A DNA stretch of 64,000 bases from Candidatus Kaiserbacteria bacterium (GCA_963813065.1 CAWEXP010000010.1:96250-160249), one strand, 5' to 3'; numbered from the stretch's first letter, positions 11,022-59,342 are shown. Numbers and translations are program-made. The notes: generated by a model from the letters alone, not told the origin.

Positions 11022-13604
11022 ATGTTCAACCCGCTGTCCCGCTTCTTCTCTAAGAACCAATCCGCGGCCTTTCTGAAGGCTGCGGCCTCGGTCGTTTCTG
11101 CCGCAGGAGCACTCGAAGCCGAGCTGGAGAAGCTCTCGCAGGAAGACCTGCGGGCGAAGGTTGCCGAGCTGAAGGCGCGCGCAGGAAACGGCGTTCCCGA
11201 AGCCGATATTCCGCTTGTGTTTGCGCTCGTGCGTGAGGCGGCGCGCCGCACCCTCGCCCAGCGCCCTTTCGATGTTCAGCTCATCGGCGGTCTCGCGCTC
11301 GCGCGGGGCAAGATTGCCGAGATGCGTACGGGCGAGGGCAAAACCTTGGTTGCAACTCTGCCTGTCACCCTCGCTGCGCTTGCGGGGAAGGGGGTGCACA
11401 TCGTGACGGTGAATGATTATCTTGCGCGTCGTGACTCCGCATGGATGGGGCAGATCTATGACTATCTCGGGCTCTCGGTCGGCGTGATTACCTCGAGTGG
11501 TGCATATCGCTACGATGCCTCGCATGTCGAGAAGAAAGAAGATGCCGAGCGCGACGCCGCCGGGTCGTTCAAAGTTTTTTATGATTTTTTGCGTCCTTGC
11601 ACCAAGCGCGAAGCGTATGCGGCAGACCTCACCTACGCGACCAACAACGAGCTCGGGTTCGATTATCTGCGCGACAACACTGCCTACACCGCCGAACAGA
11701 TTTCTCAGCGTGGCCACGCCTATGCCATCGTCGACGAGATTGACTCAATCTTGATTGACGAAGCGCGCACCCCGCTCATCATCAGCGGACCGGCCGGCGA
11801 CTGGGGAATCTCTATCAGCAATTTGCGCAGATCGTACATGGTTTTAGTAAGGATGAGGATTATACGGTCGACGAGAAGCAAAAAGCCATCCAGATAACCG
11901 AAGCGGGGATGAAGAAAGCCGAACAGGCCCTCGGGATGGAAAATCTCTACACCGAAGGCGGTATCAAATATGCGCATCACCTCGAGACCGCGGTGCGCGC
12001 CGCGGCACTCTTCCACAAGGATAAAGAGTACGTCGTGAAGGATGGTGAGATTATGATTGTTGACGAATTCACGGGCCGTATGCAGCCCGGTCGCCGTTGG
12101 AGCGAAGGTTTGCACCAGGCGATTGAAGCAAAAGAAGGCGTATTGGTAAAAGAAGAGACACGCACCTATGCCTCGGTCACGTTCCAAAATTATTTCCGCA
12201 TGTACGAGAAGGTCGCGGGCATGACCGGTACCGCGCTCTCGAGCGAGGAAGAATTTTTCACCGTCTATGGGCTCGATGTGGTCGTCGTCCCGACGCACCG
12301 GCCCTCGGCGAGAAAAGACTTTGATGATCTCATCTTCCAGACTGCGGCCGGGAAGTATCGCGCAGTGGCCAAGCGGGTCAAACAATTCCACGAGAAGGGC
12401 CAGCCAGTGCTCATCGGCACGGTCTCGATCGAGGACAACGAGCTCGTGAGCCACTATCTCGATTCTGCGGGCGTCCCGCACGAGGTGTTGAACGCCAAGA
12501 ATCATGAACGCGAAGGCGAAATCATCGCCGAGGCAGGTGCGCCCGGGCCGCGTGACGGTCGCGACCAACCTCGCGGGCCGCGGTGTGGACATCAAGCTTG
12601 GTGGCGCTCTGGCAACTGTAGAGTCTCGCGCGCTCGTGGTGGAGAAAGGCGGCTTGGCGGTCATCGGCACCGAGCGGCACGACGCGCGCCGCATCGACAA
12701 CCAGCTCCGCGGACGTTCCGGCCGCCAGGGCGACCCGGGCGAGACGCGGTTCTTCGTCTCGCTCGAGGACAAACTCATGCGCGTCTTCGCGAGCGAGACG
12801 CTGAAGCGCGTGATGGGCGGCTTCGGCCTCCCCGAGGACGAGCCGATTGAGAGTGGGATGATTACTAAGTCGCTTGAGAGCGCGCAGGAGCGTATCGAGG
12901 GATTCAACTTCGATTCGCGCAAGCAGGTGCTCGCCTACGACGACGTGATGAACACCCAGCGTCTCTCCATCTACGCGCGCCGTCGCCGCGCCCTGCTCGG
13001 CACAAACGAGGAGGTTGTCGAGGAGGCGCGCACACTGCTTCGTGGCGAAAATACGGAAGTCAGACTTCCGTACCAGGTAGGGAAGTCTGACTTCCGTACT
13101 ATACTGGAGGCCAAGCAGGCAGAACTCGGCGAGCAGTTCATACCGTTGCTGCGCCGCCTCATCTTGCAGGTCATAGACACCTTCTGGCTTGAGCATCTCG
13201 ACACGATGGAGTACTTGCGCCGCTCCGTGTCGCTGCGCGCCTACGGCCAGCGCGATCCGCTTATCGAGTATCGCCGCGAGGGCTTGCAGCGCTTCCGCGC
13301 GATGGAGGAGGGCATCGCGCGCATGTTTGGCGAGACACTCCCCAATCTCACCCTCGCGCAGGACGCGGCCATCAAGCAGGAGGAGGCGCGGCTACGCGCG
13401 CAGCTCGAGAAGGCGGGCAGCGCATCGTTGTCCCCGGCGGGGGGCAAGGAGAGTGCCGTTGGCGCTGCGCATGCGCCCATCGTCAACGCGACCGGCCACG
13501 GCAGGAACGATGTGGTCACGGTCAAGAAGGGCACCGAGACGCAAACTATTAAATATAAAAAGGCCGAGGCCCTCCTCGCCGAGGGCTGGGAATTGATGCC
13601 ATAA
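11022..13604 (+). CDS. secA: Preprotein translocase ATPase SecA, interrupted by two single-base frame shifts (near 11797 and near 12545). The middle 0.75 kb is in another frame and the two shifts compensate.
   Basis: The three listed ORFs (11013-11897, 11909-12850, 12504-13604) together carry contiguous SecA motifs: [39 protein letters not shown] | LGNLYQQ...[44 protein letters not shown] | [45 protein letters not shown]. Both junctions sit in G/C homopolymer-like runs. Confidence 0.85.
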
Positions 13605-13640
13605 GCACGAAATTCGAAGCTCGAAATACGAAACAAATAA
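13604..13640. repeat. Left arm of the inverted repeat flanking the four-helix-bundle gene (AAGCACGAAATTCGAAGCTCGAAATACGAAACAAAT)
   Basis: Its reverse complement recurs downstream at 14013-14072 (AAGCACGAAATCCGAAAATCGAAACAAAT...). Confidence 0.45.
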
Positions 13641-15600: not shown

Positions 15601-16326
15601 AAACTAGGACACGGCGTGTCCTAAATTTAGAGTTCGATGCTTTTGCTCTCGCTGGCGATAATTGGATCCGAAATAATGGAGCGTATTTCTTTCTGTTGTT
15701 CTTGGGTCGTGCCAAGAACTGGGCGTAATTCACTCATCTGCAAAATGGAGGGAAAATTCTTAGACTCATTGTAGTCGAGATAACTACTCCAGCGATAGGC
15801 ATGCAATTCGTCGAGTGCATCTTTTGCATGGCGAACACCTCCCTGTCGCCATTCAGGATGGCTCAAATCAAGGGGATTAAGATGAATATAGTAAGGAACA
15901 TACATAAAATGTGCATCACGAGTGACGAGAACCTTTCTGAAAGTTCCTTGCCAGAGAACGCCAGAGCGTTGATATTTTTCATTTACATATTTCGCGTAGC
16001 CCATATTCAGTTTCCGCATGAATAAAGAGAGCGAGCCTTCTTTTGTGGGGGAGACGAGCAAGTGGTAGTGGTTTGGCATGAGTGCGTACGCATGAATGTG
16101 CACAAGGAGATCCCGTTTATGCGGTGCCTCACGTGCTTTCAGTATATAGTTTGGCGCCGAGCAAGTATCATTGAATATGTACATATCATGGATAAAACGA
16201 AGATAGTCTCCGTCTTCCATAAAGACTTTTCGTTTATCGACACCCCGATTTACCAAGTGATAAAACTCCATCGAATGTCATATTAGCAAGCCGTTTCAAA
16301 CTAGGACACGGCGTGTCCTAAATAAG
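15601..16326 (-). mobile_element. REPtron 1: RayT/IS200-type Y1 transposase gene flanked by identical about 27-bp direct copies of palindrome REP1 (TAGGACACGGCGTGTCCTA)
   Basis: REP1 lies at 15605-15623 (immediately 3' of the stop) and at 16302-16320 (5' of the start). The extended identical flanks are AAACTAGGACACGGCGTGTCCTAAAT. Confidence 0.65.
15627..16271 (-). CDS. REP-associated tyrosine transposase (RayT/IS200-like, Y1 HUH) copy 1
   Basis: HUH motif NHYHLLV, and Y-motif HAYRWSSY. N-terminus MEFYHLVNRGVDKR is typical of Y1_Tnp. Confidence 0.75.
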   Translation of the reverse strand: MEFYHLVNRGVDKRKVFMEDGDYLRFIHDMYIFNDTCSAPNYILKAREAPHKRDLLVHIHAYALMPNHYHLLVSPTKEGSLSLFMRKLNMGYAKYVNEKYQRSGVLWQGTFRKVLVTRDAHFMYVPYYIHLNPLDLSHPEWRQGGVRHAKDALDELHAYRWSSYLDYNESKNFPSILQMSELRPVLGTTQEQQKEIRSIISDPIIASESKSIEL

Positions 16327-32200: not shown

Positions 32201-33600
32201 TCTCGGGCAACGTCGGGCTCGGCGTCGCACCGAGTGCCGCAGATAAATTGACCGTCGGCGGCAACATTTTCGCGCAGGCATACGAGGTGCCAGCCGGCAC
32301 GGTGACGGCGTATACGTTTGGCGCGGCAAGTGGAAGTCAGACTTCCAGTTCCGACGGAGGAAGTCAGACTTCCTTTGCCGCGCCGATACCGAGTGTGGTG
32401 CTTACGGCAGGTGGACGGGTCGACCTCTACAAGCTCGCAACCTACAATCTCTCGGGTATCTCCGCGCTTGCGGTGCGCCTCCAGACCGACGAGATGCGCC
32501 TGACCTCGCTCGAGGCACGCGTCGCAGAGCTCGAGAATGGTTCCATCGCCGTCTCGACCTCGACGCCGTTCTCCACCTCGACCCTCGCCTCCGCCTTCTC
32601 CGGCCTCGGCGCATACATCCAGCAGGGCATCGCGCAATTTGGCATCCTCGTCGCCGACCAGTTCGTCGCCGCGACCAACTCGGCGGGTACGAGCTCCGCG
32701 GGCACCGTGACGATTCCGGCCGGCAACACGGTCGCGGTGGTGACGAACGCGTACGTCAATCCGGCGTCCAAGATTTTCGTCACCTTCACTGCCTCGACCA
32801 CCGCCTCTTGGTACATCAGCGACAAGCAGAACGGCTCCTTCAAACTCATCCTCTCTGCGGCGCCGACGAGCGATATCTCCTTCGACTACTTCATCGTCCA
32901 GACGCAGGGCCAGATCGCGACCAGCACGCCCGTTTCTGAAGGAGGTCAGACCTTCACAAATCCTCAAGGTCTGACCTCCCAGCCCGTGATTACTCTGCTC
33001 GGCGACAATCCGCTCCATCTCTCGGTCGGTGGTACCTTCGTCGAGCCGGGCGTGAGCGTGCATGACTCTGATGGCACCAATGCGTACGTCACCTTCGTCA
33101 ATGGTGTGCAAGAAACCATTTCCTCGACGACGCTCGACACGTCGAGCCCGACCACTTATATCATCACGTACAGCGCGACCGACAGCTCGGGCAACACTGC
33201 GACCGCGCGCCGCTCGGTGATCATCGGCAATCCAGACGGAACCGTTTCTTCCGGCGCCGGTGGAGGTCAGACCTTAAATCCGAATCCTCAAGGTCTGACC
33301 TCCTCGGCACCGGCTGATACCACGCCACCCGTTGTCACTCTCAATGGTTCGGCGGCACTCACCACCTCGCAAGGCACGACCTTCACTGATCCAGGCGCAA
33401 CGGCAACCGATGATACCGATGGTGACCTGACCAGCAAGATTAAAGAAACGGGTACCGTCGACACGACAACCCTCGGCCTCTACACGCTGACCTACTCGGC
33501 CACCGACTCAGCAGGGAACACCGGTACCGCCTCGCGCGTGGTCTCGGTTGTCGCGGCTCCGAGTGCGCCAAGCGACGCTTCCACAACGCCCGCGGGTTAA
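20213..33600 (+). CDS. Giant (about 4,460 aa) HTH-TM-anchored, Gly/Thr/Ser/Ala/Asn-rich repetitive surface protein. It has tail-fibre-like repeats, an S74-type intramolecular-chaperone motif and two DUF5011 Ig-like domains. One gene, split by two frameshifts near 26500 and near 28600.
   Basis: ORFs 20213-26521, 26532-28646 and 28732-33600 carry the same repeat unit (GNVGIGTTSPYANLSVMAGGNYA...AGFINTDQYSGYKQAGNT(V/I)LYASTTN...) straight across both junctions; the reading frame just slips at GC runs. Other domains: HTH_17-like N-terminus plus TM (VFAVVAAFLVVGSGAFIAHAG); SDQRLKQNITTLAPATGLAAIDALNPVSYTFIDP...YGLIAQQVQQVLPALV near 31870; C-terminal DUF5011-like segments (PVITLLGDNPLHLSVGGTF...; PPVVTLNGSAALTTSQGTTF...TYSATDSAGNTGTASRVV). 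Confidence 0.7.
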
Positions 33601-36161: not shown

Positions 36162-36900
36162 CTCCCATGTAGGGTTTCGTAAATCCTACATTCCGTCATT
36201 CAAGCCTGAATCCAGGTTCTAGGTCGCCCTGAGCATCCTTCAGATACTCGGCAAGCGCGCGAGGGTAATTCCCGAGCGCGTTCTTAAAAAGGGAAGTGGT
36301 AAGGACGGAAGGAAAATTTTTCTTGCCGGTGTAATCGAGATAACTGCTCCAGCGATAGGTGTCGAGATATTCCAAAGCTTTCTTTGCACTCTTGATGCCG
36401 TTCTTACTGCGCACGCGCCACTCCTCGGCGCCTTCGAGGTAGTCGAGCGGGTTAAGGTGGATATAGTGCAGGATGTAGTTGAACTGCGCGTCGCGCTCAA
36501 TCAATATTTTCTTCGTCCGCCCTTGGAAAAGAGTGCCCTTGCGCTCGTACCGTTCATTAAAGTAATTCGCATACCCGACATTGAGCTTGCGCAAGAATAA
36601 ACTCACTCCGCCTTCGATTTTTTCTGACAACAGCAGGTGATAGTGGTTCTTCATCAGGCACCACCCATGTATCTCCACAATCCGCTCTCGCTCAATGTAG
36701 GGTTTCGTAAATCCTACATCTGGCGCACAGCGACGCTCAGAGGCCGCAGCAGGTGAGCGGTCGTTGAATTGGTATAAGTTATGGATAAAACGAACGTAGT
36801 CGGAAGAATCAGAAAATAAGTGTCGCCCGTCAACTCCCCGATTGAGTGCATGATATAGCTCGGCCATATAGATGTAGGGTTTCGTAAATCCTACATTCAA
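36162..36900 (-). mobile_element. REPtron 2: RayT-type transposase with palindrome REP2 (TGTAGGGTTTCGTAAATCCTACA) at its 3' flank, 5' flank and inserted in-frame inside the gene
   Basis: REP2 copies at 36168-36190, 36696-36718 (internal; encodes APDVGFTKPYI, absent from copy 1) and 36873-36895. Confidence 0.65.
36196..36867 (-). CDS. REP-associated tyrosine transposase (RayT/IS200-like) copy 2. The likely start is MAELYHALNRGVDGR at 36867; the listed ORF starts at a TTG inside the upstream REP.
   Basis: HUH motif NHYHLLL and Y-motif DTYRWSSY; 55-60 percent identical to copy 1 outside the REP insertion. Confidence 0.75.
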   Translation of the reverse strand: MAELYHALNRGVDGRHLFSDSSDYVRFIHNLYQFNDRSPAAASERRCAPDVGFTKPYIERERIVEIHGWCLMKNHYHLLLSEKIEGGVSLFLRKLNVGYANYFNERYERKGTLFQGRTKKILIERDAQFNYILHYIHLNPLDYLEGAEEWRVRSKNGIKSAKKALEYLDTYRWSSYLDYTGKKNFPSVLTTSLFKNALGNYPRALAEYLKDAQGDLEPGFRLE

Positions 36901-39270: not shown

Positions 39271-40278
39271 ATGAAACCAATTCGAGTTGCGATAAATGGA
39301 TTTGGGCGGATCGGGCGAGCCTTCGTGCGGAGGAGCCAGGGGAGGAATATTGAGATTGTTGCGGTCAACGATCTCGGCTCGCTCGAGAATCTCGCGTATC
39401 TTTTGAAATACGACACGGTCTACAAACGCGCGGCATTTCCCGTTGAAGCAAAAGACGGTGCTTTGTGGATTGATGGGAAGGCCGTGAAGTTTTTGCAAGA
39501 AAAAGATCCCGCGCACTTGCCGTGGAAGGATCTCGACGTTGATGTCATCGTCGAGTCGACCGGATTTTTTACTGACTATGAGAAGGCGAAGGCGCACCTC
39601 GATGCGGGTGCGAAACATGTGGTGATTACCGCACCAGTGAAGGGAGAGTCGGAACTCGGCGCGACGGTGTTGATGGGGCTGAACGAAGAAAAAATAAAAT
39701 CCTGCCCGATCACGAGCAACGCCTCTTGCACCACCAACTCCGCGAGTCCGCTCATCGCGATTCTCGACGAGGCGATTGGTATCGAGAAGGCAATTCTCTC
39801 CACCACGCATGCCTACACTGCGTCGCAGGCGATTGTCGACGGTCCGAGCAAGAAGGACATGAAGGAAGGCAGAGCCGCGGCGCAAAATATCGTCCCGACC
39901 TCGACCGGTGCGGCCGTCGCGGTGACGCAGGCGTACCCCGCGCTCGTGGGGAAGTTTGACGGCATCTCGCTCCGCGTGCCGGTGCCTGCGGGCTCGATTG
40001 CGGACATCACTTTCATTGCGAAGCGGTCAACGAGCAAAGAAGAAGTAAATGAGATATTGCGCGCCGCCGCAACGGCGGCGCGCTGGGCTGGCATTTTCTC
40101 GGTTACCGAGGATGAGCTGGTTAGCAGTGACATCATCGGCGAGCCCTACGCCTCGATTGCCGACCTCGGGATGACGCGCGTGGTCGATGGCAATCTAGTG
40201 AAGGTGCTCGCCTGGTACGACAACGAAATGGGGTACACCGAAAGCCTCGTCCGGCACGTGCTCGCCACGGCGCAATGA
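39271..40278 (+). CDS. gap: Glyceraldehyde-3-phosphate dehydrogenase, type I
   Basis: INGFGRIGR NAD-binding motif, the catalytic Cys motif SNASCTTN, and WYDNEMGY. Confidence 0.9.
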   Translation: MKPIRVAINGFGRIGRAFVRRSQGRNIEIVAVNDLGSLENLAYLLKYDTVYKRAAFPVEAKDGALWIDGKAVKFLQEKDPAHLPWKDLDVDVIVESTGFFTDYEKAKAHLDAGAKHVVITAPVKGESELGATVLMGLNEEKIKSCPITSNASCTTNSASPLIAILDEAIGIEKAILSTTHAYTASQAIVDGPSKKDMKEGRAAAQNIVPTSTGAAVAVTQAYPALVGKFDGISLRVPVPAGSIADITFIAKRSTSKEEVNEILRAAATAARWAGIFSVTEDELVSSDIIGEPYASIADLGMTRVVDGNLVKVLAWYDNEMGYTESLVRHVLATAQ

Positions 40279-40727
40279 ACAAAATCTATTTTGCGAGTGA
40301 TCACGCCGGTTTCAAGTTGAAAGCAGTGTTGGTCCCGTATACGCAGAGCCTCGGCTATGAGGTCGAGGATGTCGGGCCATATGAAATTGTCGCCACCGAC
40401 GATTATCCGGAATATATTACGCCACTCGCGCGCGCGGTGGCAGGAGACGCCACCGCGCGCGGCGTCATCATCGGCAAGAGTGGCCAAGGCTGAGGCGATG
40501 TGTGCCAATCGCATCAAAGGTGCTCGTGCTACGGTCTTCTACGGTGGTTCGCTCGAGATCGTCACGCTTGCGCGCGAACACAACGATGCAAATATTCTCG
40601 CTCGGCGCGCGGGTTCGTGAACGACGACGAGGCGAAATCGGCGTCAAACTTCTTCTCGATACGGCCTTCAGTGGCGAAGAGCGACATGTTCGCCGCTCGC
40701 AAAGTTTTAATCATGATGACATCGTAA
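40275..40727 (+). pseudogene. rpiB: Ribose-5-phosphate isomerase B, disrupted by about three frameshifts
   Basis: MNKIYFASDHAGFKLK... (frame 0), then ...AEAMCANRIKGARATVFYGGSLEIVTLAREHNDANILA (frame 1), then GFVNDDEAKSA (frame 0), then KLLLDTAFSGEERHVRR (frame 2): RpiB motifs in order but in three frames. Confidence 0.6.
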
Positions 40728-41424
40728 CGCCAGCGATACTCGCGACTTCTGCCGAAGAGTTCGAGGCGAAGCTCGCGCGCTTCACGTTGATTCCCGCCGT
40801 TCGACGTATCCAGATTGATGTCGTTGACGGTCGCTCGCGAAGCCCGCGTGCTGGCCCTTTCACAGAAAGGGCAGTTCGAGAATTGCTCGCGCGGCAGTCG
40901 CTCCGCACATCGGACGATTCGAATTCGAGATCGATCTTATGGCGCTCGAGCCAGAGACCATTGCGCTCGCGTTTCTTGAGCTGGGCGCCTCACGCTTCGT
41001 CTTCCATGCCGAGAGCGCGACCTCGCTCGGCCGCCTGCTCGCACTCTTCCGTCGCCTTGCGGGGCACGAAAAAGGATTCACCAATCTTATTTCTATCGGC
41101 CTCTCACTCGGGAACGCGAGCGACCTCTCGCTGATCGAGCCGTATCTCGACCAGGTCGATTTCGTACAATTCATGGGCATCGCGAAGATCGGTTCTCAGG
41201 GCCAACCCTTCGATCGCCGCGTCGTCGAGCGAATACGTGCGTTCCGTCTCCGCCATCCAGAAATTCCCATCCAAGTGGACGGTGGTGTCACGCTCGAGAC
41301 CGGACGCGCACTCCTCATGCAGGGCGTCGAGACATTGGTGGTCGGGCACGACCTGCTCGAAGCGAAAGACATTCGCACCGAGCTCGCGCGATTCGAGGAT
41401 TTGCAGAATCCGTATAGCATCTAG
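40712..41424 (+). pseudogene. rpe: Ribulose-phosphate 3-epimerase-like gene, frameshifted. Its N-terminus is in-frame continuous with the rpiB C-terminus (possible rpiB-rpe fusion).
   Basis: IVTPAILATSAEEF...IQIDVVDG (frame 2) matches the Rpe N-terminus (IAPSILSADF...IHxDVMDG). ...FEFEIDLMALEPE...FVQFMGIAKIGSQGQPFD...IQVDGGVTLETG...LVVGHDLL (frame 1) matches the Rpe C-terminus. Confidence 0.5.
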
Positions 41425-41441
41425 CGTGGTATCGTTCTCCT

Positions 41442-42315
41442 ATGGCACTCCTCGACACTGACATCCAAGCGCTCGAACAGAAGGCGGTCGAGATTCGTAC
41501 GACCGTCATCGAGATGCTCGTGTCTGCAGGGAGCGGACACACCGCAGGGCCACTCGATATGGCGGACATTTTCACTGCCTTTTATTTTCATATTCTCAAG
41601 CATGATCCGAAGAATCCGGCGTGGGAAGAACGTGATCGGCTGATTCTCTCAAATGGCCACATTGTCCCGGTGCGCTACGCGGCGATGGCGCACGCGGGCT
41701 ATTTCCCGGTCGAGGAGTGTTTGACTCTGCGGAAGTTCGGCTCGCGTCTCCAGGGTCACCCCGAGCGATTGCGTTTGCCTGGTCTCGAGACGACCTCGGG
41801 CCCACTCGGCGAGTGGCCTCTCGCAGGCCGCGGGCATCGCGTATGCGCTCCGCATGCAGGACACGGCGTATCAATTCAGAAGTTGGACACGCCGTGTCCA
41901 ACTTGGGAAACCGCGGTGTATTGCCTCACGAGCGACGGCGAGCACGATGCGGGCAACACGTGGGAGGCGGCGCTTTGGGCGGGGAAAAATAAATTATCGA
42001 ATCTCACCGCGCGTGGTCGATCGCAACAATATCCAGATTGACGGTATGACCGAGGACGTCATGCCGCTCGAACCTTTTGCCGATAAATATCGCGCATTCA
42101 ACTGGCACGTCATCGAGGTCGACGGTCACAACATCCGCGCATTCATTGAGGCCGTTGAAGAAGCGAAGGCGATCGAAGAGAAACCGACAATGATTATCGC
42201 GCACACCATCGCGGGCAAAGGCGTGAGAGAGATTGAAGGCGACTATCACTGGCACGGCAAACCGCCCACCGCTGAAGAAGCGAAACGATTCCTCGCTGAA
42301 ATTCACCATGCATAA
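41442..42315 (+). pseudogene. tkt: Transketolase N-terminal subunit (split TK), disrupted by three frameshifts and carrying a 25-bp REP1-like hairpin inside the coding sequence
   Basis: SGHTAGPLDMADIFTAFYF..., GHPE...PGLETTSGPLGE | GLSQAAGIAYALRMQD | AVYCLTSDGEHDAGNTWEAALWAGKNKLSNLTA | VDRNNIQIDGMTEDVM...FNWHVIEVDGHN alternate between two frames. Confidence 0.65.
41880..41904. repeat. REP1-related perfect palindrome AAGTTGGACACG-C-CGTGTCCAACTT inside tkt coding sequence
   Basis: 12-bp arms. Its core GGACACG.CGTGTCC is shared with REP1 of REPtron 1. It lies exactly where the tkt frame switches. Confidence 0.6.
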
Positions 42316-43317
42316 TCCTTCTGCAAAATTAGTCGAGAATCTGTTTGACGCGAAGATTGCGCAGGCGCCGACGCGCGACGGATTCGGCAAGGGGACCATT
42401 GAAGCCGGGAAAAAAGACCAGCGTGTGGTGGTGCTCTGCGCCGATCTCGCGGAGTCGACGCGCGCTGAATGGTTCGAAAAAGAATTTGTCGACCGATTTA
42501 TTGAAGTGGGTGTTGCCGAACAGAATCTGGCGGCGCTCGGGAGCGGTTTCGCGGCCGGCGGGAAAATCCCCTTCATCGCGAGTTATGCCGCGTTTTCGCC
42601 GGGCAGAAATTATGAGCAGATTCGTACCACCATCGCGCTCAATCAGCAGAACGTGAAGATTTGCGGCATGCACGCGGGCGTCTCGGTGGGGCCCGATGGC
42701 GCGACGCACCAGATGCTCGAGGATATCGGGCTCATGCGCATTTTGCCGCATATGATTGTGCTCAACCCGTGCGACGCCGAGGAGGCGCGGAAGTCGGTCA
42801 TCGCGGCGGCCCTGCACGACGGGCCCGTCTACATCCGCTTCGGTCGCGAGGCAGTGCCTGTGTTCACCACGAGTGAGACGCCCTTCGCCATCGGCAAAGC
42901 GCAAATTTATTATGAAAATCCGGATGAAGGTGAGTCGGGTTCCAAAGTTGCGCATACTCGCGACCGGGCCTCTGGTCTACGAGGCGCTCAAGGCCGCGGA
43001 GGCGCTCGCGAAGGAGGGCATCCGCGCAATTGTCGCGAATGTTGCCACCATCAAGCCGCTCGACGAAGACACCATCTCTCGATCGCGCGCGCGACCGGGC
43101 GCATCATCACGGTCGAAGAGCATCAGACCGCGGTGGATTCGGCAGTGCGGTCGCCGAACTGCTTGCAGAAAAATTACCGACCCGCATCGAGCGCATCGGC
43201 GTCCGCGATCAGTTCGGTCAGTCCGGCACACCCACCGAGCTCCTCAAGCACTACGGTCTCGATTCTGCGGCAATCCTAGAACGCGCTCGCGCGGTAGTCC
43301 GCGGGAGCATTTCGTAA
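42308..43317 (+). pseudogene. tkt: Transketolase C-terminal subunit (split TK), disrupted by about three frameshifts
   Basis: MHNPSAKLVE...FIEVGVAEQNLAALGSGFAAGGKIPFIASYAAFSPGR...CGMHAGVSVGPDGATHQ (frame 2), then KLRILATGPLVYEALKAAEALAKEGIRAIVANVATIKPLDEDTI (frame 0), then GRIITVEEHQTAVDSAV (frame 2), then GGFGSAVAELLAE...RIGVRDQFGQSGTPTELLKHYGLD (frame 1). Confidence 0.65.
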
Positions 43318-44259
43318 TTTTTCTTCGAGCACGGCGCGGGTGAGTAAGCCTTCTTGCGCGCCGATTTTTTGTACCACGCCGCCTGCATTGATGGGGCCCC
43401 ACGCGAGCGCCTCAGGAACGGTCTTGCCGAGCACGAGTGCGGCGACCGCTGTCGAAGAGAACGCATCGCCCGCGCCGGTGCGTTCATACGCGTTCTCGCC
43501 ATCCGGGTACAGACCGATTTTCCATGCGCCATCCGCAGAGAGAGCATACGCGCCCACGGGTCCATCGGTGAGAAAACAAACTTTTGGCCCCTTCGCATGC
43601 ATCAGCTCCATCAATTTCTTCTCGTCTTCTTCTTGCGTGTCGAGAATAATTTGATATTCCTCTTTGTTCGCAATAAAAATGTCAGTGCGCGCGTAGGTGC
43701 GCGCGAGTTTCTCACTGCCTTCTGCAATTTGGAACGTGCCGGGCTGGAAGGCGAGCAGGATCGAGGGGCTCTGTTCCAGCCAATCCGCGAGCGGCTCGTG
43801 GAGGAACATGCCAGCTTCACCGATCGAAGAGAGATACACCGCTTTCGGCGTGGGCATGGGGCTTGGCAAGTGGTACTCAAAAGCCGTGTGTTTGATAAGA
43901 ATGGTGCGCTCGGGACCATACCAGAGGACGTAATGTTCGTTGGTATCTTTGCCGTCTTCGACCGCGACGAAATTTTCGGCCACGCCTTCCTTCGTGAGTG
44001 TTGCGAGGCAATCCTCGCCGCCACGATCTCGACCCACCGCCGCGAAGAGCGCCGAGGAGAGCCCGAGACGCGCGGCCGCGACGGCCGCATTCGGCGCGTT
44101 GCCGACGGCCGTGACGCGCTTGGCGAATTCGTAGGGAATTTTGTCGCCGAAGCGCATTGTGAGCGTGCAGTGTTCGTTGTGCTCGTCACATTTGACCTCA
44201 GCCTCCTTAAGCCGGATGAAGGTGTCGTTGACCAAGTCTCCAATCGCGAAAAAATCCAT
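43276..44259 (-). CDS. PfkB-family carbohydrate/ribokinase-like kinase
   Basis: N-terminal GDLVND substrate-lid, and C-terminal TGAGDAFSSTAVAAL (the PfkB signature GAGD anion hole). Intact 327 aa. Confidence 0.75.
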   Translation of the reverse strand: MDFFAIGDLVNDTFIRLKEAEVKCDEHNEHCTLTMRFGDKIPYEFAKRVTAVGNAPNAAVAAARLGLSSALFAAVGRDRGGEDCLATLTKEGVAENFVAVEDGKDTNEHYVLWYGPERTILIKHTAFEYHLPSPMPTPKAVYLSSIGEAGMFLHEPLADWLEQSPSILLAFQPGTFQIAEGSEKLARTYARTDIFIANKEEYQIILDTQEEDEKKLMELMHAKGPKVCFLTDGPVGAYALSADGAWKIGLYPDGENAYERTGAGDAFSSTAVAALVLGKTVPEALAWGPINAGGVVQKIGAQEGLLTRAVLEEKLRNAPADYRASAF

Positions 44260-45308: not shown

Positions 45309-45942
45309 ATGTTTACGCTCGAAGTAACCCAGAGAAAGGCGGGTAGCCCAGGCGCGCTCCGGCGCGCCGGGTCGGTCCCTGCGGTCGTCTATGGCGCCCA
45401 CCAGGCGTCAACGCCGATTGCGGTCGATGCCCGCGCATTCGACAAGGCCTTCAAGGTCGCCGGCGAGTCGTCGGTCATTTCGCTCACCGGTCTCGGCGCG
45501 GCTATTCCCGTACTCGTCCAGGAAGTTGATCTCGACCCGCTGACCTACCTCCCGCGCCACATCGATTTCTACGCCATCACCAAGGGCGAGAAGGTCGAGG
45601 TCGCCGTGCCACTTGTCTTCGTCGGCGAGTCGGCGGCGGTCAAGGGCGGCGCCAATCTCATCAAGGTGCTCCGCGAGCTCGAGGTCAAGGCCGACCCGAT
45701 GAATCTCCCCGCCTCCTTCGAGGTTGAATCTCGCGCTCCTCGTCAACATCGACGACCAAATTCACGCCGGCGATCTCAAGCTCCCGGCGGGTGTCGAGCT
45801 CATGGTTGAGCCCGAGGAAGTCGTTGCACTCGCGCAGGAAGTGGTTGAGGAGAAGGAGGAAGTCGCACCGGCTGACCTCTCGGCTATCGAGGTGGAGAAG
45901 AAGGGCAAGGAGGAGGCTACAGAGCCCGAAGCCAAAATTTAG
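45309..45942 (+). CDS. rplY: Ribosomal protein L25/general stress protein Ctc, with one frame shift near 45729
   Basis: N-terminal L25 domain ...RRAGSVPAVVYG. The C-terminal LALLVNIDDQIHAGDLKLPAGVELMVEPEEVVA continues in the +1 frame. Confidence 0.75.
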
Positions 45943-45984
45943 GACATCCGATGTCCTAAATGCATTTGGACATCGGATGTCCTA
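45940..45984. repeat. Pair of REP1-family palindromes in opposite orientation (BIME-like doublet): TAGGACATCCGATGTCCTA and TGGACATCGGATGTCCTA
   Basis: Copies at 45940-45958 and 45967-45984, immediately after the rplY stop. The loops CCG and CGG are inverted relative to each other. Confidence 0.55.
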
Positions 45985-46008
45985 ATTCGCGTGCTAAACT
46001 AGCCGGAC

Positions 46009-47376: not shown

Positions 47377-48060
47377 TTAGTCCCTCCAAGGTTGAACCTC
47401 GGCGAAAGTACGCGCATCACTAATCAACGCGTTAATGTTCGGAATTTGCGAATGCTCGTAATAATTCCGCATATTCACCCGGTTCAGTATCGCCGCTTCT
47501 GGTCGGGTTGAGCCGAGGTAATCAGGAAGACTCGAGTAACGATATTCTGCGAGAAAAACATGCGCATCTTTCTGGTTTCGGATCAGGCCCTCTTTCCACC
47601 TCGGTTCCACTAACTCCGCTGGATTCGCATGAATGTAATTTACGAGCCGTTTAAAATAACGGTCGTCGTCAACGTGTTTTGATTTGAAGCGGCCGCCGAA
47701 GAGGGCGCCAGTTCGTTCCTCTTTCTTATTAAAATACATAGTATAGCCGGTGCCGATTTTTTGCATAAAGAGAGCGACTCCATTATTGGAGGTTTGTTGT
47801 AACAGAATGTGGAAATGGTTAGGCATAAGGCAATATGCGCCGATGGCAACCAGCGGATGTTCTCGTGGCCACTCAACAATCTCCTCCAAGGTTGAACCTC
47901 GGTGGTTATCGCCCAAGTGGACGGGTGATTCGTCATTCGCACTCACGAGCAACATGAGAAAACGTTCATAGTCTCGCTCGAAAAGAAAGACATCGCGCTT
48001 ATCGACTCCGCGATTGTAACAGTGATACCACTCGTCTGTTGCGAATGGTTCTCGATTCAT
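47377..48060 (-). CDS. REP-associated tyrosine transposase (RayT/IS200-like) copy 3. The likely start is MNREPFATDEWYHCYNRGVDKR at 48060; the longer listed ORF reads through the upstream REP.
   Basis: HUH motif NHFHILL, and Y-motif EYRYSSLPDY. Confidence 0.7.
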   Translation of the reverse strand: MNREPFATDEWYHCYNRGVDKRDVFLFERDYERFLMLLVSANDESPVHLGDNHRGSTLEEIVEWPREHPLVAIGAYCLMPNHFHILLQQTSNNGVALFMQKIGTGYTMYFNKKEERTGALFGGRFKSKHVDDDRYFKRLVNYIHANPAELVEPRWKEGLIRNQKDAHVFLAEYRYSSLPDYLGSTRPEAAILNRVNMRNYYEHSQIPNINALISDARTFAEVQPWRD

Positions 48061-48102
48061 CCAACGATTGTAGCAATCCCTCCAAGGTTGAACCTCGGTT
48101 TT
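47377..48102 (-). mobile_element. REPtron 3: RayT-type transposase with imperfect palindrome REP3 (CTCCAAGGTTGAACCTCGG) at its 3' end, inside the gene and 5' of it
   Basis: REP3 at 47384-47402 (encodes the last 7 codons, EVQPWRD), 47884-47902 (internal) and 48080-98. Confidence 0.6.
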
Positions 48103-48328
48103 TTCCAGTAGGCGATAACTTACCTCTGGTCCGAGGCCGATTGCCCAGACACCCTCCGCATGCGCAGCGGACGCCAGTATGCCTACCGCCGAAGCGGCCA
48201 ACAGGAGTGTACGCATGGTAGAACCTCGCTGATGTGAAGATCGTTTTCGGACAAATCGTCCGAGTTGGGCACGAGCCCATCCGGGGGCACCTTAGCACGA
48301 GGGTGATTTATGTCAAAAATAGAAAAAG

Positions 48329-49259: not shown

Positions 49260-51914
49260 ATGATTACTAACCGCCTCGCGCTCTCGGGCATCGTTACCGC
49301 AGTGCTCCTCTTCGCGCCGCTCGTCGCCAATGCGCAGGCCGCTGTATCCTACTCAGCTAATTCCAACACTGGCTTCACCGTCTATAACGGAACGTGCAAT
49401 AGCGGCAGCGGAGGTTGTACCGATTACAATTCAAGCTGGGGCGCGAATCTTAAGTCTGACGCGCTCGCAAATGGTGGCCAATCCAACAACGGCTCGGCGA
49501 GTGGTATGTATCTTGAGCCCGGCTCTCACAGCTACAACAGTAGCTACTTCACTAATGGCTACCCAGATAATGCATGGTACGCAACGTCAGGCGGCGGGAG
49601 CCAATATTCGCAGTCCACGCTCAATCGTCTTTGCTACGATATTGACCCGAGCTACCCAGACCCGACTGCGACCGGCAGCGGCACCCATTATGATTACTCC
49701 AGCGGCAGCTCGAAAGATAACACCCTCCTATTCAGCGGCACACGTTGGTATCTGCTCGAGAACGACAGCACGTACAACACGCTCCTCTCGGGCAACAATG
49801 CGCTCCATGTCGTAAAGAGCCTCACCTGTAAGTCCTACCAATTACCACAGAACACACTGTCGGCAAGCGCCTACACTTCTTCGGTTCCCGGTACTGGCAT
49901 TACGCTCTCCTGGAGAGACACGTCCTATCACGATTCCCTCAAGCTGGGGCCGCTCGGAATCGGAACCGTCGGTATTGGAGCGAGTCATTGCTCCTTCAGC
50001 TGGTCAGATGCAACGACACAGAGTAACTATTACAGCCAGAGTTATGGACAATACACGGGTAGCGACACCGTCTATCCCGGTGCCGGTACCACCGTCTACC
50101 ACTACACCTGCACCAATGTGAATGGCACGACGGATGCCACTGCGACCATTACAGTCACTGCCGCCTGCGTCAGCAACCAGGGTCAGGCATGCAACATAAA
50201 CTCCTGCGGGGTGCAGGGCGGAACGTTCAATTGCGACGGCTCGTGCTCGGGAGCGACGCCTCCGACGAATAACAACCAGGCCTGCTCTGCGTCGAGTGCG
50301 TGTGGTACCAATAACGGTACCTACAATTGCAGCAATGTCTGCAGCGTTAGTGCGCCTCCGGTGCCAGGCAATCTCAATCAGGCCTGCCCATCTGCTCCTA
50401 ATGCTTGCGGACAGACGCAGTCGAACGGCACTTGGCAATGCAACGGCAGCTGTACTTCAACACCTCCCTCCAACGCCTCGTGCAACCAGCCACCCGCTAC
50501 ACCCACGCTGCAGGGGCTCTATAGCGCCGACGGCGGCACCTACTACGGCGCCTCTGCTCCGGCCAATAATCCAAGCGGCTATCGCATGTATGCCGCTGCA
50601 ACTGACCCAAACGGTGACAATACTGCGCTCTACTTCACCTGGTCGGGCATAAGCGCCGAGTGGGGTACACCCGTCTGGGTTGGCTCTGGCTCGTGGAGCT
50701 ACGACACCAAGCTCGCGAACGCTGGCCCTGGTACCTACTACGTGAACGCCGCTGCCTACGATAATCAAGCATGGGGGCCAACCTCCGGCTGGTATACGAT
50801 TACTCTCACGGCGCCTGCGCTCCCCGACCTCATCTCCGGCAATGTAACTCCGACGACCGCCGCTGCCACGGTTCCTCAAACGTATACAGCAACCATCTCG
50901 AATAACGGCACGGCGGCCGGTGCTTCAACAGCGCGCCTGCGCCGCGCGACCGACTCCTCAGGCACCGGTTCCACCGACATCGCTACAGCATCGGTAGCGG
51001 CGATTGGAGCGAATGGTAGCGCGCCGGCCTCCTTTACCGGCGTCGCGCTTCCATCCGGTACCTGGTACTTGAGCGCTTGCGCCGACAGCACCAATGTTGT
51101 CACTGAATCAGTCGAGACCAATAACTGTAGCCCACTGTGGACTGCAGTTGTGTCGAGCTACCCCTCCATCCCCTCGGGCGGGAACAGTATCTCCTGCTCA
51201 GTCTCGCCGACTACGGGTAACACGAGCACCACCTACACCTGGACGGCCTCGGGTGCCTCGGGCGGCAATGGCGGCCCCTATACCTACCACTGGGGAGGCA
51301 CCGCTCTTGCCGGGATGACCGGTAACCCAGTGACGGTCAACAACTATAGTGCCGGTGGTCCCTATGGCGGTACGGTGTACGTGACCGACTCTGCGGGGGA
51401 TACATCGAGTACGGTTACCTGCGGCAATTCAGTGACCGTGAGCGCGGCGCCTGCCTGCTCGACGCTCACCGCGAGCCCCTCCACTATTGTTGCAGGCGGG
51501 CAAGTCACGCTCACCTGGTCGTGTCAGAATGCCGCCTCTTGCACCGCGCTCCCTAACTCCGACGGATTCTCCACCGGTGCGACCAATCCTGCCTCGGGGT
51601 CGACTCCCGTGACGCCGAACGAGAGCGGCGGCCAGGTGACTTATGGCATGACCTGCGGCGGTGCATCCTTCAACTTCCCGGCGGTTACCATTCTCCAGCC
51701 GCAGGCAACCATCACTGCTAATCCGGTGCGCGTCGCCTCGGGAGCTAATTCCACCATCACCTGGAGTTCTTCGAACGTGAGGAGTTGTACCGAGAGCGGC
51801 CCGGGACTCTCAACGAGTACGCAGTCGGGTAATCAGACGATCAGTAACATTGCGAAGCAGTCGGTCTATACCATCACCTGTCAGACAAATAGCTCAAGCG
51901 CGTCCCGACCGTGA
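49260..51914 (+). CDS. Large secreted Cys/Ser/Thr/Gly/Asn-rich protein with CARDB-like and Cys-knot-like repeats
   Basis: Signal peptide MITNRLALSGIVTAVLLFAPLVANA; multiple C-x-C repeats; a CARDB-like segment PDLISGNVTPTTAAATVPQTYTATISNNGTAAGAS. The last few codons may continue in another frame (...PTVTNSVTVNVNGSINQF*). Confidence 0.5.
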   Translation: MITNRLALSGIVTAVLLFAPLVANAQAAVSYSANSNTGFTVYNGTCNSGSGGCTDYNSSWGANLKSDALANGGQSNNGSASGMYLEPGSHSYNSSYFTNGYPDNAWYATSGGGSQYSQSTLNRLCYDIDPSYPDPTATGSGTHYDYSSGSSKDNTLLFSGTRWYLLENDSTYNTLLSGNNALHVVKSLTCKSYQLPQNTLSASAYTSSVPGTGITLSWRDTSYHDSLKLGPLGIGTVGIGASHCSFSWSDATTQSNYYSQSYGQYTGSDTVYPGAGTTVYHYTCTNVNGTTDATATITVTAACVSNQGQACNINSCGVQGGTFNCDGSCSGATPPTNNNQACSASSACGTNNGTYNCSNVCSVSAPPVPGNLNQACPSAPNACGQTQSNGTWQCNGSCTSTPPSNASCNQPPATPTLQGLYSADGGTYYGASAPANNPSGYRMYAAATDPNGDNTALYFTWSGISAEWGTPVWVGSGSWSYDTKLANAGPGTYYVNAAAYDNQAWGPTSGWYTITLTAPALPDLISGNVTPTTAAATVPQTYTATISNNGTAAGASTARLRRATDSSGTGSTDIATASVAAIGANGSAPASFTGVALPSGTWYLSACADSTNVVTESVETNNCSPLWTAVVSSYPSIPSGGNSISCSVSPTTGNTSTTYTWTASGASGGNGGPYTYHWGGTALAGMTGNPVTVNNYSAGGPYGGTVYVTDSAGDTSSTVTCGNSVTVSAAPACSTLTASPSTIVAGGQVTLTWSCQNAASCTALPNSDGFSTGATNPASGSTPVTPNESGGQVTYGMTCGGASFNFPAVTILQPQATITANPVRVASGANSTITWSSSNVRSCTESGPGLSTSTQSGNQTISNIAKQSVYTITCQTNSSSASRP

Positions 51915-58562: not shown

Positions 58563-59342
58563 ATGAATCCCGGCCGCCTCCACCCGATCACGATTGCTAT
58601 TCGTGATATCGCGGATATCTTCGGCCGGATGGGATTCGACATTGGGTACGGGCCGGAGCTCGAAGACGAGTTCCATAACTTCGACGGACTCCGCATGTTT
58701 CCTGATCACCCTGCGCGCGACATGCAGGACACCTTCTGGCTAAAACCCGCCCTGGGCGGGTTCGCCCGACCCGACTCGTCTGACGAGTCGGGTTTAGGGG
58801 CAAGGATACCGAGAGTGCTGCGCACGCACACGACCTCGGTCACCATTCGCGAGCTCGAGCAGATGGCGAAAGAGGGCACGATCTCAGCACGAATGATTAA
58901 TCCGGGGAAAGTGTTCCGTAACGAAGCTACGGACCAATTCCACGAAGCGCAGTTCTATCAGCTCGACGGTTTTGCGGTTGGGCCAATCGGTTCGGTTACG
59001 CTCGCTGATTTGAAGGGCACCTTCGACCGTTTCTATCGCGAATATCTCGGCCCCGAGGCGAAGGTGCGTTTCCGCCCCAGCTATTTCCCCTTCGTGGAGC
59101 CGGGCGTCGAGATCGATGTGTGGTTTGCGCCCGCGCAGAAGTGGCTCGAGATGGCGGGTGCGGGCATGCTTCATCCCGACGTGCTCCGTAACGCCGGACT
59201 CGATCCGCAAAAGGTCGCGGGCTTCGCCTTCGGCGGCGGACTTGAACGTTTGCTGATGGTGAAGTACGGCATCCCTGATGTGCGACTCTTCCACTCGGGC
59301 GACATTCGTTTCGTTTACGGTTTCCCCGAAAAGAAAATATGA
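58563..59342 (+). CDS. pheS: Phenylalanine--tRNA ligase alpha subunit (short form lacking the N-terminal about 85 aa), with a roughly 20-aa in-frame insertion encoded by nested palindromes
   Basis: HPITIAIRDIADIF..., class II motifs FRPSYFPFVEPGVEIDV and GFAFGGGLERLLM. The insertion KPALGGFARPDSSDESGLGARIP falls between DTFWL and RVLRTHTTS. Confidence 0.85.
   Translation: MNPGRLHPITIAIRDIADIFGRMGFDIGYGPELEDEFHNFDGLRMFPDHPARDMQDTFWLKPALGGFARPDSSDESGLGARIPRVLRTHTTSVTIRELEQMAKEGTISARMINPGKVFRNEATDQFHEAQFYQLDGFAVGPIGSVTLADLKGTFDRFYREYLGPEAKVRFRPSYFPFVEPGVEIDVWFAPAQKWLEMAGAGMLHPDVLRNAGLDPQKVAGFAFGGGLERLLMVKYGIPDVRLFHSGDIRFVYGFPEKKI
58743..58795. repeat. Nested palindromes inside pheS coding sequence: AACCCGCCC-t-GGGCGGGTT and CCCGACTCGTC-t-GACGAGTCGGG, enclosed by AAACCCG...CGGGTTT
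   Basis: Perfect 9-bp and 11-bp inverted repeats read directly from the sequence. Confidence 0.6.

Follow-up and report, generated by a model that had tools for sequence, protein, structure and literature searches.

We analysed a 64,000-nt stretch of a Candidatus Kaiserbacteria contig (GCA_963813065.1 CAWEXP010000010.1:96250-160249; hereafter the window, with positions counted from its first letter), in which four adjacent genes, rpiB, rpe, tktN and tktC, can be read at full length only by repeatedly changing frame. The genome belongs to the Paceibacterota (Parcubacteria, within the Candidate Phyla Radiation, CPR): its gap protein matches 75 Patescibacteria loci at 55-80% identity, and the window's own proteins are singletons. 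The genes of the locus are ordered gap(+), rpiB, rpe, tktN, tktC(+), pfkB(-) and fba(+), and Pfam domains LacAB_rpiB, Ribul_P_3_epim, Transketolase_N, Transket_pyr and Transketolase_C are recognised on the fragments of the four middle genes, which are as follows:

40275-40710, plus strand: rpiB (Mycobacterium tuberculosis-type RpiB/LacAB), 145 codons after correcting 5 insertions or deletions (indels)
40713-41424, plus strand: rpe-like gene (Ribul_P_3_epim family), 5 indels
41442-42315, plus strand: tktN, transketolase N-terminal subunit, 3 frame changes, 85% amino acid identity to the TktN of relative L081
42308-43317, plus strand: tktC, transketolase pyrimidine-binding and C-terminal subunit, 3 indels; its frameshifted open reading frame (ORF) is deposited as P0037

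The gene order is identical in the close relatives L001, L003, L081 and L083, and likewise in the shorter L002/L082 up to their contig ends; the four middle genes are single ORFs in the former and, within their reach, in the latter. In a set of 78 Patescibacteria loci, each of the four is an uninterrupted ORF of full length in 54-65, and nearly all of the others reach contig ends. Looking for intact rpiB, rpe and tkt genes in relatives had been suggested in a preliminary description of this DNA, and they were found, as single ORFs, in about 60 related genomes.

The 16 frame changes

Reading rpiB-rpe-tktN-tktC (40275-43317) requires 16 frame changes (5+5+3+3). These were located by frameshift-aware protein-to-DNA alignment (a dynamic programme) against the intact orthologues of L001-L003, L081 and L083, as well as by DNA alignment to the 92%-identical relative L084 and by MAFFT DNA alignment to L081/L083. 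With a strict penalty the protein-to-DNA alignment missed 7 events, namely the compensating -1/-1/-1 in rpe and short interludes in rpiB; a laxer penalty recovered 2 of these, and the others came from the rpiB stop and rpe start, read by eye, and from the L084 DNA alignment. A crude codon-usage Viterbi frame tracer was used for nominating junctions only; the switches it placed at 51890, 53614, 54298 and 55030 were rejected as shifts, being ordinary gene boundaries. The preliminary description had counted at least 11 frameshifts in 3 kb. Its observation that the operon is readable only by frame changes is confirmed, and the junctions it spelled out (GPLGE/GLSQAAG..RMQD/AVYCL..NLTA/VDRNNIQIDG) are correct, but with 16 events and a 64-fold local excess the observation was understated.

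In rpiB the indels are an extra T at 40491, the loss of 2 nt (TC) after 40595, an extra G at about 40609 and the loss of one base after 40643 and again after 40695. The natural stop (..RRLAKF-stop, at 40708-10) is the exact terminus common to L081, L083, L003 and L084, and the corrected protein is 86% identical to the intact RpiB of L084 (P0123), with the same length. In rpe an event at 40717-18 (+2 or -1) is followed by -1 after each of 40834, 40860, 40879 and 40902; as the last three are all -1, the frame returns. The frame changes of tktN lie at about 41811-14 (+1), at about 41905-15 (net -1, beside a 42-nt insertion described below) and at 42012 (+C), and its stop overlaps the start of tktC (ATGCATAA). 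Those of tktC lie at about 42932 (+1), about 43076 (-1) and about 43131 (-1). Separately, the 3' end of the window tktN (42286-42315) lacks 9 C-terminal codons (27 nt, ..RTMGGKIKN..) found in L081, L083 and most homologues, an in-frame difference that keeps the stop/start overlap with tktC.

The patch carries 5.3 events per kb as compared to 0.08 per kb elsewhere in the window, a 64-fold excess (Poisson P of at least 16 events with 0.25 expected, about 1e-23), and the events fall into three sub-patches:

40491-40902: indel sub-patch A, 10 events in 412 nt
41811-42012: indel sub-patch B, 3 events in 202 nt, with a hairpin resembling repetitive extragenic palindromic (REP) elements at its centre
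42932-43131: indel sub-patch C, 3 events in 200 nt

From the end of one sub-patch to that of the next it is 1110 and 1119 nt, and the two stretches in between, of 909 and 920 nt, are free of events. Outside the operon the window holds five single-base frameshifts, three of which are in essential genes:

about 11803 and about 12548: single-base shifts in secA
about 26497 and about 28592: single-base shifts in the giant gene
45726: single-base shift in rplY

Isolated single shifts had already been noted for all three genes; by our count secA and the giant gene have two each and rplY has one. The two shifts cut secA into three pieces, each of which is recognisable as SecA, with the C-terminal piece aligning to SecA chains in the PDB, and rplY is cut once. 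As shifts of this kind disrupt even the essential genes secA and rplY, the assembly demonstrably contains indel errors.

A link to methylation motifs was considered and rejected: GAATCTC/GANTC lies within 12 nt of 3/14 patch sites and 2/5 background sites, as compared to 9-15% of random ones, which is not convincing, and for GATC, CCWGG, GCGC and CGCG the distance test around shift sites detected no association. Rfam and tRNA scans gave no match within the patch. Just upstream of sub-patch A, at 40429-40461 in rpiB, there is a perfect 13-bp GC-rich palindrome (CGCGCGCGGTGGC-7 nt-GCCACCGCGCGCG); this hairpin is not conserved, as its arms have two mismatches in L084.

Substitutions, stops and indel lengths

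L084 (ENA ERZ27245406 k141_101846) is a short-read-style contig of 935 nt with 92% DNA identity to the window, and carries an intact 145-codon rpiB followed by the first 143 codons of an intact rpe. Compared with it over 40210-41140, the window shows ten indel events (in order: +1, -2, +1, -1, -1, +2, -1, -1, -1, -1), every one of them within 40491-40902; the 280 nt that precede this segment and the 240 nt that follow it are free of indels. In 40491-40902 there are 64 substitutions, of which 10, 4 and 50 are at positions 1, 2 and 3 of the codons in the corrected frame (78% at third positions), and the first 143 codons of rpe comprise 90 identical, 41 synonymous and 8 non-synonymous codons plus 4 hit by gaps. 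No excess of position 1+2 differences was detected inside the indel cluster (14/274 inside vs 14/344 outside, Fisher P = 0.56). Ten natural indels in neutral DNA would be expected to come with dozens to hundreds of substitutions around them, evenly divided among the codon positions: at indel:substitution ratios of 1:3 to 1:10, 20-67 extra position 1+2 changes are expected, and the probability of seeing at most 5 is 7e-5 (1:3) to 1e-22 (1:10). The lack of a substitution excess beside ten indels therefore points to a source process that makes essentially only indels. As it is rpiB and the 5' part of rpe that have a close relative in L084, the case for sub-patches B and C rests on more distant alignments, the best full-length TktC/TktN relatives being 75-85% identical at most.

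Along the whole corrected path there are 1000 sense codons and no internal stop, with every gene ending at the orthologous stop; under decay at ratios of 1:5 to 1:10, 2-4 nonsense changes would be expected. All frameshifting events are of 1-2 nt and without net DNA loss, both against L084 and, after setting aside in-frame length differences, against L081/L083. In 151 curated bacterial pseudogenes, by comparison, 396 deletions took out 7,421 nt, with a mean of about 19 nt (PMC6054270).

The gene signals are kept throughout: the ATGA overlap of gap and rpiB, the rpiB stop after ..LAKF, the rpe ATG and the ATGCATAA overlap of tktN and tktC. The corrected proteins also keep the motifs of RpiB (SDHAG, the Glu in GQGEAM, EHNDAN and RHVRR) and of TktN (GSGH and SDGE...DRNN); in these families the motifs have catalytic roles, and the GQGEAM Glu is catalytic in RpiB. 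With L081 taken as sister, the branch leading to the window shows no extra length for rpiB (ratio 0.8-0.9) and at most a mild lengthening for tktN (0.9-1.75). Of what marks a pseudogene, disruption of the ORF relative to intact orthologues is present. Relaxed selection was not detected on the rpiB and tktN branches or for rpe against L084, with tktC and rpe equivocal in some outgroup comparisons, and neither a deletion-biased, long-tailed indel spectrum nor nonsense mutations were found along the corrected genes. The marks of an artefact are seen: indels are of 1-2 nt, indispensable genes are hit likewise, and there is no footprint of substitutions or stops.

Palindromic elements and flanking genes

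One of the frame changes in tktN lies beside a longer event:

41863-41904, plus strand: lineage-specific insertion in tktN, net +41 nt relative to L081/L083

Its simplest reading is a 42-nt (14-codon) in-frame insertion plus one missing base that is not exactly placed. The preliminary description had counted the segment at about 41863-41915 among the shifts. This holds in part, since the event is a net +41-nt insertion with a REP-like palindrome inside it, which that description had missed along with the three sub-patches. The insertion contains a perfect 12+1+12 palindrome, AAGTTGGACACG-C-CGTGTCCAACTT, at 41880-41904, with extensions AAGTT/AACTT and located inside coding sequence; a GTAG/CGTC tag was not found with it, and an exact scan of Joint Genome Institute (JGI) metagenome contigs for the 25-nt palindrome gave 0 matches. 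Its 15-nt core, GGACACGCCGTGTCC, matches the hairpins at 15607 and 16304 in reverse complement, for a total of 3 occurrences in the window, and GGACA-N5-TGTCC occurs 5 times in the window vs 0.07 expected. The hairpins are the direct copies CTAGGACACGGCGTGTCCTAAAT, at 15604-15626 and 16301-16323, that flank a gene for a transposase resembling REP-associated tyrosine transposases (RAYTs). As the palindrome core also flanks this Y1 transposase gene and the motif is in excess, the tktN insertion is not an error; judged by sequence, it is a separate and genuine feature, a putative REP-like element of a RAYT-type system (PMC3333891, PMC3116915).

The insertion lies in a TktN loop, between ..A(L/F)RM and VYC..SDGE, that carries 5-28 extra residues in 69/118 close homologues (P0243-P0362), with DLRGPTSDVGPRRS, DVPRPTSDVGRGTS and DVVRPDIMSGRTTS among the recurring peptides. 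The two cases that were checked as DNA, in L085 (about 1930-1990) and L087 (about 1930-2010), form perfect palindromes, the stem being 20 bp long in the first and 25 bp in the second, in intact ORFs of short-read assemblies. The L085 insertion has GTAG/CTAC and resembles an inverted pair of GTAG-tagged REPs (that is, it is REPIN-like, REPIN denoting a REP doublet that forms a hairpin). The transketolase of Escherichia coli has a longer loop at this position. The TktN loop, a predicted surface loop, is an apparent hot spot for in-frame palindromic insertions in Paceibacterota. As insertions occur in the same loop of many homologues, that of the window is typical of the lineage, and it is probably tolerated by the protein and compatible with a working tktN.

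Three genes for IS200-like Y1 transposases (PF01797, RAYT-like) lie in the 64 kb, together with a set of 'double palindromes', i.e. two inverted copies of a 13-15-nt palindrome about 11 nt apart, with stems of 14-18 bp:

15627-16271, minus strand: IS200-like Y1 transposase (RAYT-like; PF01797, E = 1.2e-8)
36196-36900, minus strand: IS200-like Y1 transposase
47377-48216, minus strand: IS200-like Y1 transposase
13052-13098: double palindrome in secA
32332-32373, 32941-32979 and 33262-33303: double palindromes in the giant gene
45937-45985: double palindrome after rplY
58769-58793: double palindrome

The gene at 36196-36900 has two copies of a GTAG-type hairpin, TGTAGGGTTTCGTAAATCCTACA, one at the 5' end and one within the ORF (36695-36721), where it is read in frame (..VGFTKPYI..). 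Double palindromes are likewise read in frame in secA, in a region without a match to solved SecA structures, and in the giant gene, within Ser/Gly/Thr-rich linkers, and the one 3' of rplY is a terminator-like hairpin. If hairpins whose arms reach 10 nt or more are counted, the window has about 10 distinct ones, as compared to 0-1 in most of 20 shuffles (maximum 5). Such Y1-linked REP-like palindromes, in frame in tktN, secA and the giant surface protein, may matter more than the indel finding, and would point to a phenomenon in Paceibacterota akin to the palindromic elements of Rickettsia.

The genes on either side of the operon are uninterrupted:

39271-40278, plus strand: gap, encoding an intact glyceraldehyde-3-phosphate dehydrogenase of 335 aa, with the gap stop and the rpiB start overlapping in ATGA
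43276-44259, minus strand: pfkB-family sugar kinase, intact, 327 aa; orthologues carry PF00294
44274-45293, plus strand: fba, class I fructose-bisphosphate aldolase, intact, 339 aa; orthologues carry PF00274

The gap protein is 86-87% identical to that of L081, with zero frameshifts (PF00044/PF02800 on orthologues), and no internal shift relative to orthologues was detected in gap, pfkB or fba, which bears out what had been said of them in the preliminary description. In L081 itself (ENA ERZ25039472 contig_68373), the closest relative, fba is split at 12109-13101 into ORFs of 184 and 86 aa, and the L25 gene at 13117-13500 is short (127 aa), without a TL5_C domain; frameshift-type damage therefore occurs in that assembly too. 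In another relative, L001 (JAQVIY010000002), the tktN frame at 12360-13613 meets no stop and passes into a prepilin-type N-terminal segment (..GFTLIELLVVIAIIGIL..), and a 438-aa protein (P0290) combines PF07963 with transketolase domains, an arrangement that reflects either a fusion of transketolase and pilin or the loss of a stop.

Origin of the frame changes

The indels of the operon are of 1-2 nt, are specific to the window sequence, and come without decay-type substitutions, stops or larger deletions. In our view the 16 frame changes probably stem from errors of sequencing or assembly and not from gene decay, and are as such not a real feature of the genome; rpiB, rpe, tktN and tktC are real, ordinary genes that most likely function in the organism. 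The 16 changes would be single-base (in one case 2-base) indel errors in the deposited consensus. The three sub-patches that hold them would be poorly resolved parts of a contig in which indel errors are, overall, already frequent enough to break essential genes. They would have arisen not in the cell but in sequencing, assembly or polishing, for instance through an indel-prone platform and a local polishing failure. A local low-quality patch was one of two explanations offered in the preliminary description, where error was named as a real option, and it fits all sequence-level tests that we ran, with secA and rplY on the same contig shifted alike.

Several observations weigh against error, and some of them would be expected from very recent genuine pseudogenisation of the rpiB-rpe-tktAB operon, perhaps begun by a frame-breaking REP insertion in tktN, with the glycolytic neighbours under selection, an explanation that we regard as unlikely. 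The indel excess, 64-fold and limited to the four-gene unit, matches one functional unit to within about 200 nt on each side, as a pseudogene would; the window branches are somewhat longer in some outgroup comparisons (tktC 1.3-1.7, rpe 0.7-2.1); and the tktN insertion, at net +41 nt no multiple of 3, would be a genuine disruption if it is truly 41 nt. Also awkward for an error are that the events do not lie in long homopolymers, with the A6 and A5 runs of the patch intact, unlike the textbook nanopore pattern, and that the spacing of the sub-patches has a P of about 1e-5 under uniform placement (it might stem from the windows used in polishing or tiling, or from a loss of reads close to hairpins). 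Furthermore, the nucleotide comparison with a close relative covers sub-patch A alone. Decay of the non-oxidative pentose-phosphate branch, the other explanation offered earlier, nevertheless finds no support in the sequence of the genes themselves: 1000 codons lack an internal stop, the densest sub-patch has no position 1-2 excess, and the frameshifting indels, all of 1-2 nt, show no deletion bias in length (compare PMC6054270). Ten indels stand against about three excess non-synonymous changes, which inverts the natural ratio (PMC4978911). Essential genes of the same contig show identical-looking shifts, gene boundaries and translational-coupling overlaps are intact, and the operon is whole in about 60 relatives.

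That the 16 indels are real, and that a very recent indel-only burst in the three tracts silenced the whole non-oxidative pentose-phosphate operon of this member of the Paceibacterota, maybe via RAYT-type Y1 processing or frameshift-prone repair, strikes us as quite improbable, and the silenced lineage would then sit where the operon is otherwise almost universally kept. We give slightly less credence still to a real indel-only mutational process acting on three 200-400-nt tracts of the operon, be it clustered errors made by a frameshift-prone repair polymerase where breaks were repaired, or hairpin/single-strand processing linked to Y1 (RAYT-like) transposases. While the events do lie in three tight tracts rather than evenly, with a REP-like hairpin at the centre of tract B, three Y1_Tnp genes in the window and deletions outnumbering insertions by about 10 to 6, REP copies are absent from tracts A and C, no hairpin adjoins the background shifts of secA and the giant gene, and 16 independent fixations without any substitution signal would be unprecedented; to our knowledge, no mechanism gives 1 indel per 41 nt. 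Recoding, in which programmed ribosomal frameshifting, transcriptional slippage or RNA editing would let the shifted genes be expressed, has nothing in its favour beyond the coding potential that every fragment keeps. No motif is common to the 16 sites, a slippery heptamer or long A/T run is present at none of them, the shifts go in both directions, one event being -2, and the relatives read straight through, none needing recoding. With site contexts this heterogeneous, recoding is effectively refuted, and we assign it next to no probability.

If sequencing or assembly error is indeed the cause, the finding serves mainly as a warning: proteins predicted from the contig are truncated, the tktC product P0037 being already in public collections, and metabolic reconstruction would wrongly score the genome as lacking the non-oxidative pentose-phosphate pathway, which joins nucleoside-derived ribose to glycolysis in CPR bacteria. 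Small-indel frameshifts are, according to bioRxiv 10.1101/2021.08.23.457338 and PMC9262707, a recognised problem of long-read (meta)genome assemblies, for which consensus polishing is given there as the usual remedy. As in error-prone (especially long-read) assemblies, single-base indels here split conserved genes, essential ones included, without substitutions to go with them; unlike in such assemblies, their density is 64-fold uneven, concentrated in one 3-kb operon and there in three sub-patches, and long homopolymers are not preferred. With the pseudogenes of reductive evolution (leaf-nodule Burkholderia, Rickettsia, M. leprae) the operon shares frame-breaking indels, intact relatives and a small symbiont-type genome, but it lacks stops, a relaxed-selection signal and large deletions, and its indel:substitution ratio is inverted.

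The palindromes have parallels of their own. Rickettsia palindromic elements, reportedly described by Ogata and colleagues in 2000, are said to be selfish palindromes that lie in frame in protein-coding genes. The TktN insertions resemble them in being palindromic DNA in frame in conserved genes, at surface-loop positions and apparently tolerated, and differ in length (about 40-85 nt vs 100-150 nt), in their unrelated sequences and in the link to a Y1 transposase. Compared with REP/REPIN elements and their RAYTs (TnpA-REP, of the Y1 HUH type), the tktN copy is unusual in lying within coding sequence rather than between genes, in having no GTAG/CGTC tag and in its CPR host. It is alike in being a short perfect palindrome present in several copies, with a Y1_Tnp gene flanked on both sides, and the TktN insertions of relatives resemble inverted REP pairs, one of them GTAG-tagged (PMC3333891, PMC3116915, PMC3733652).

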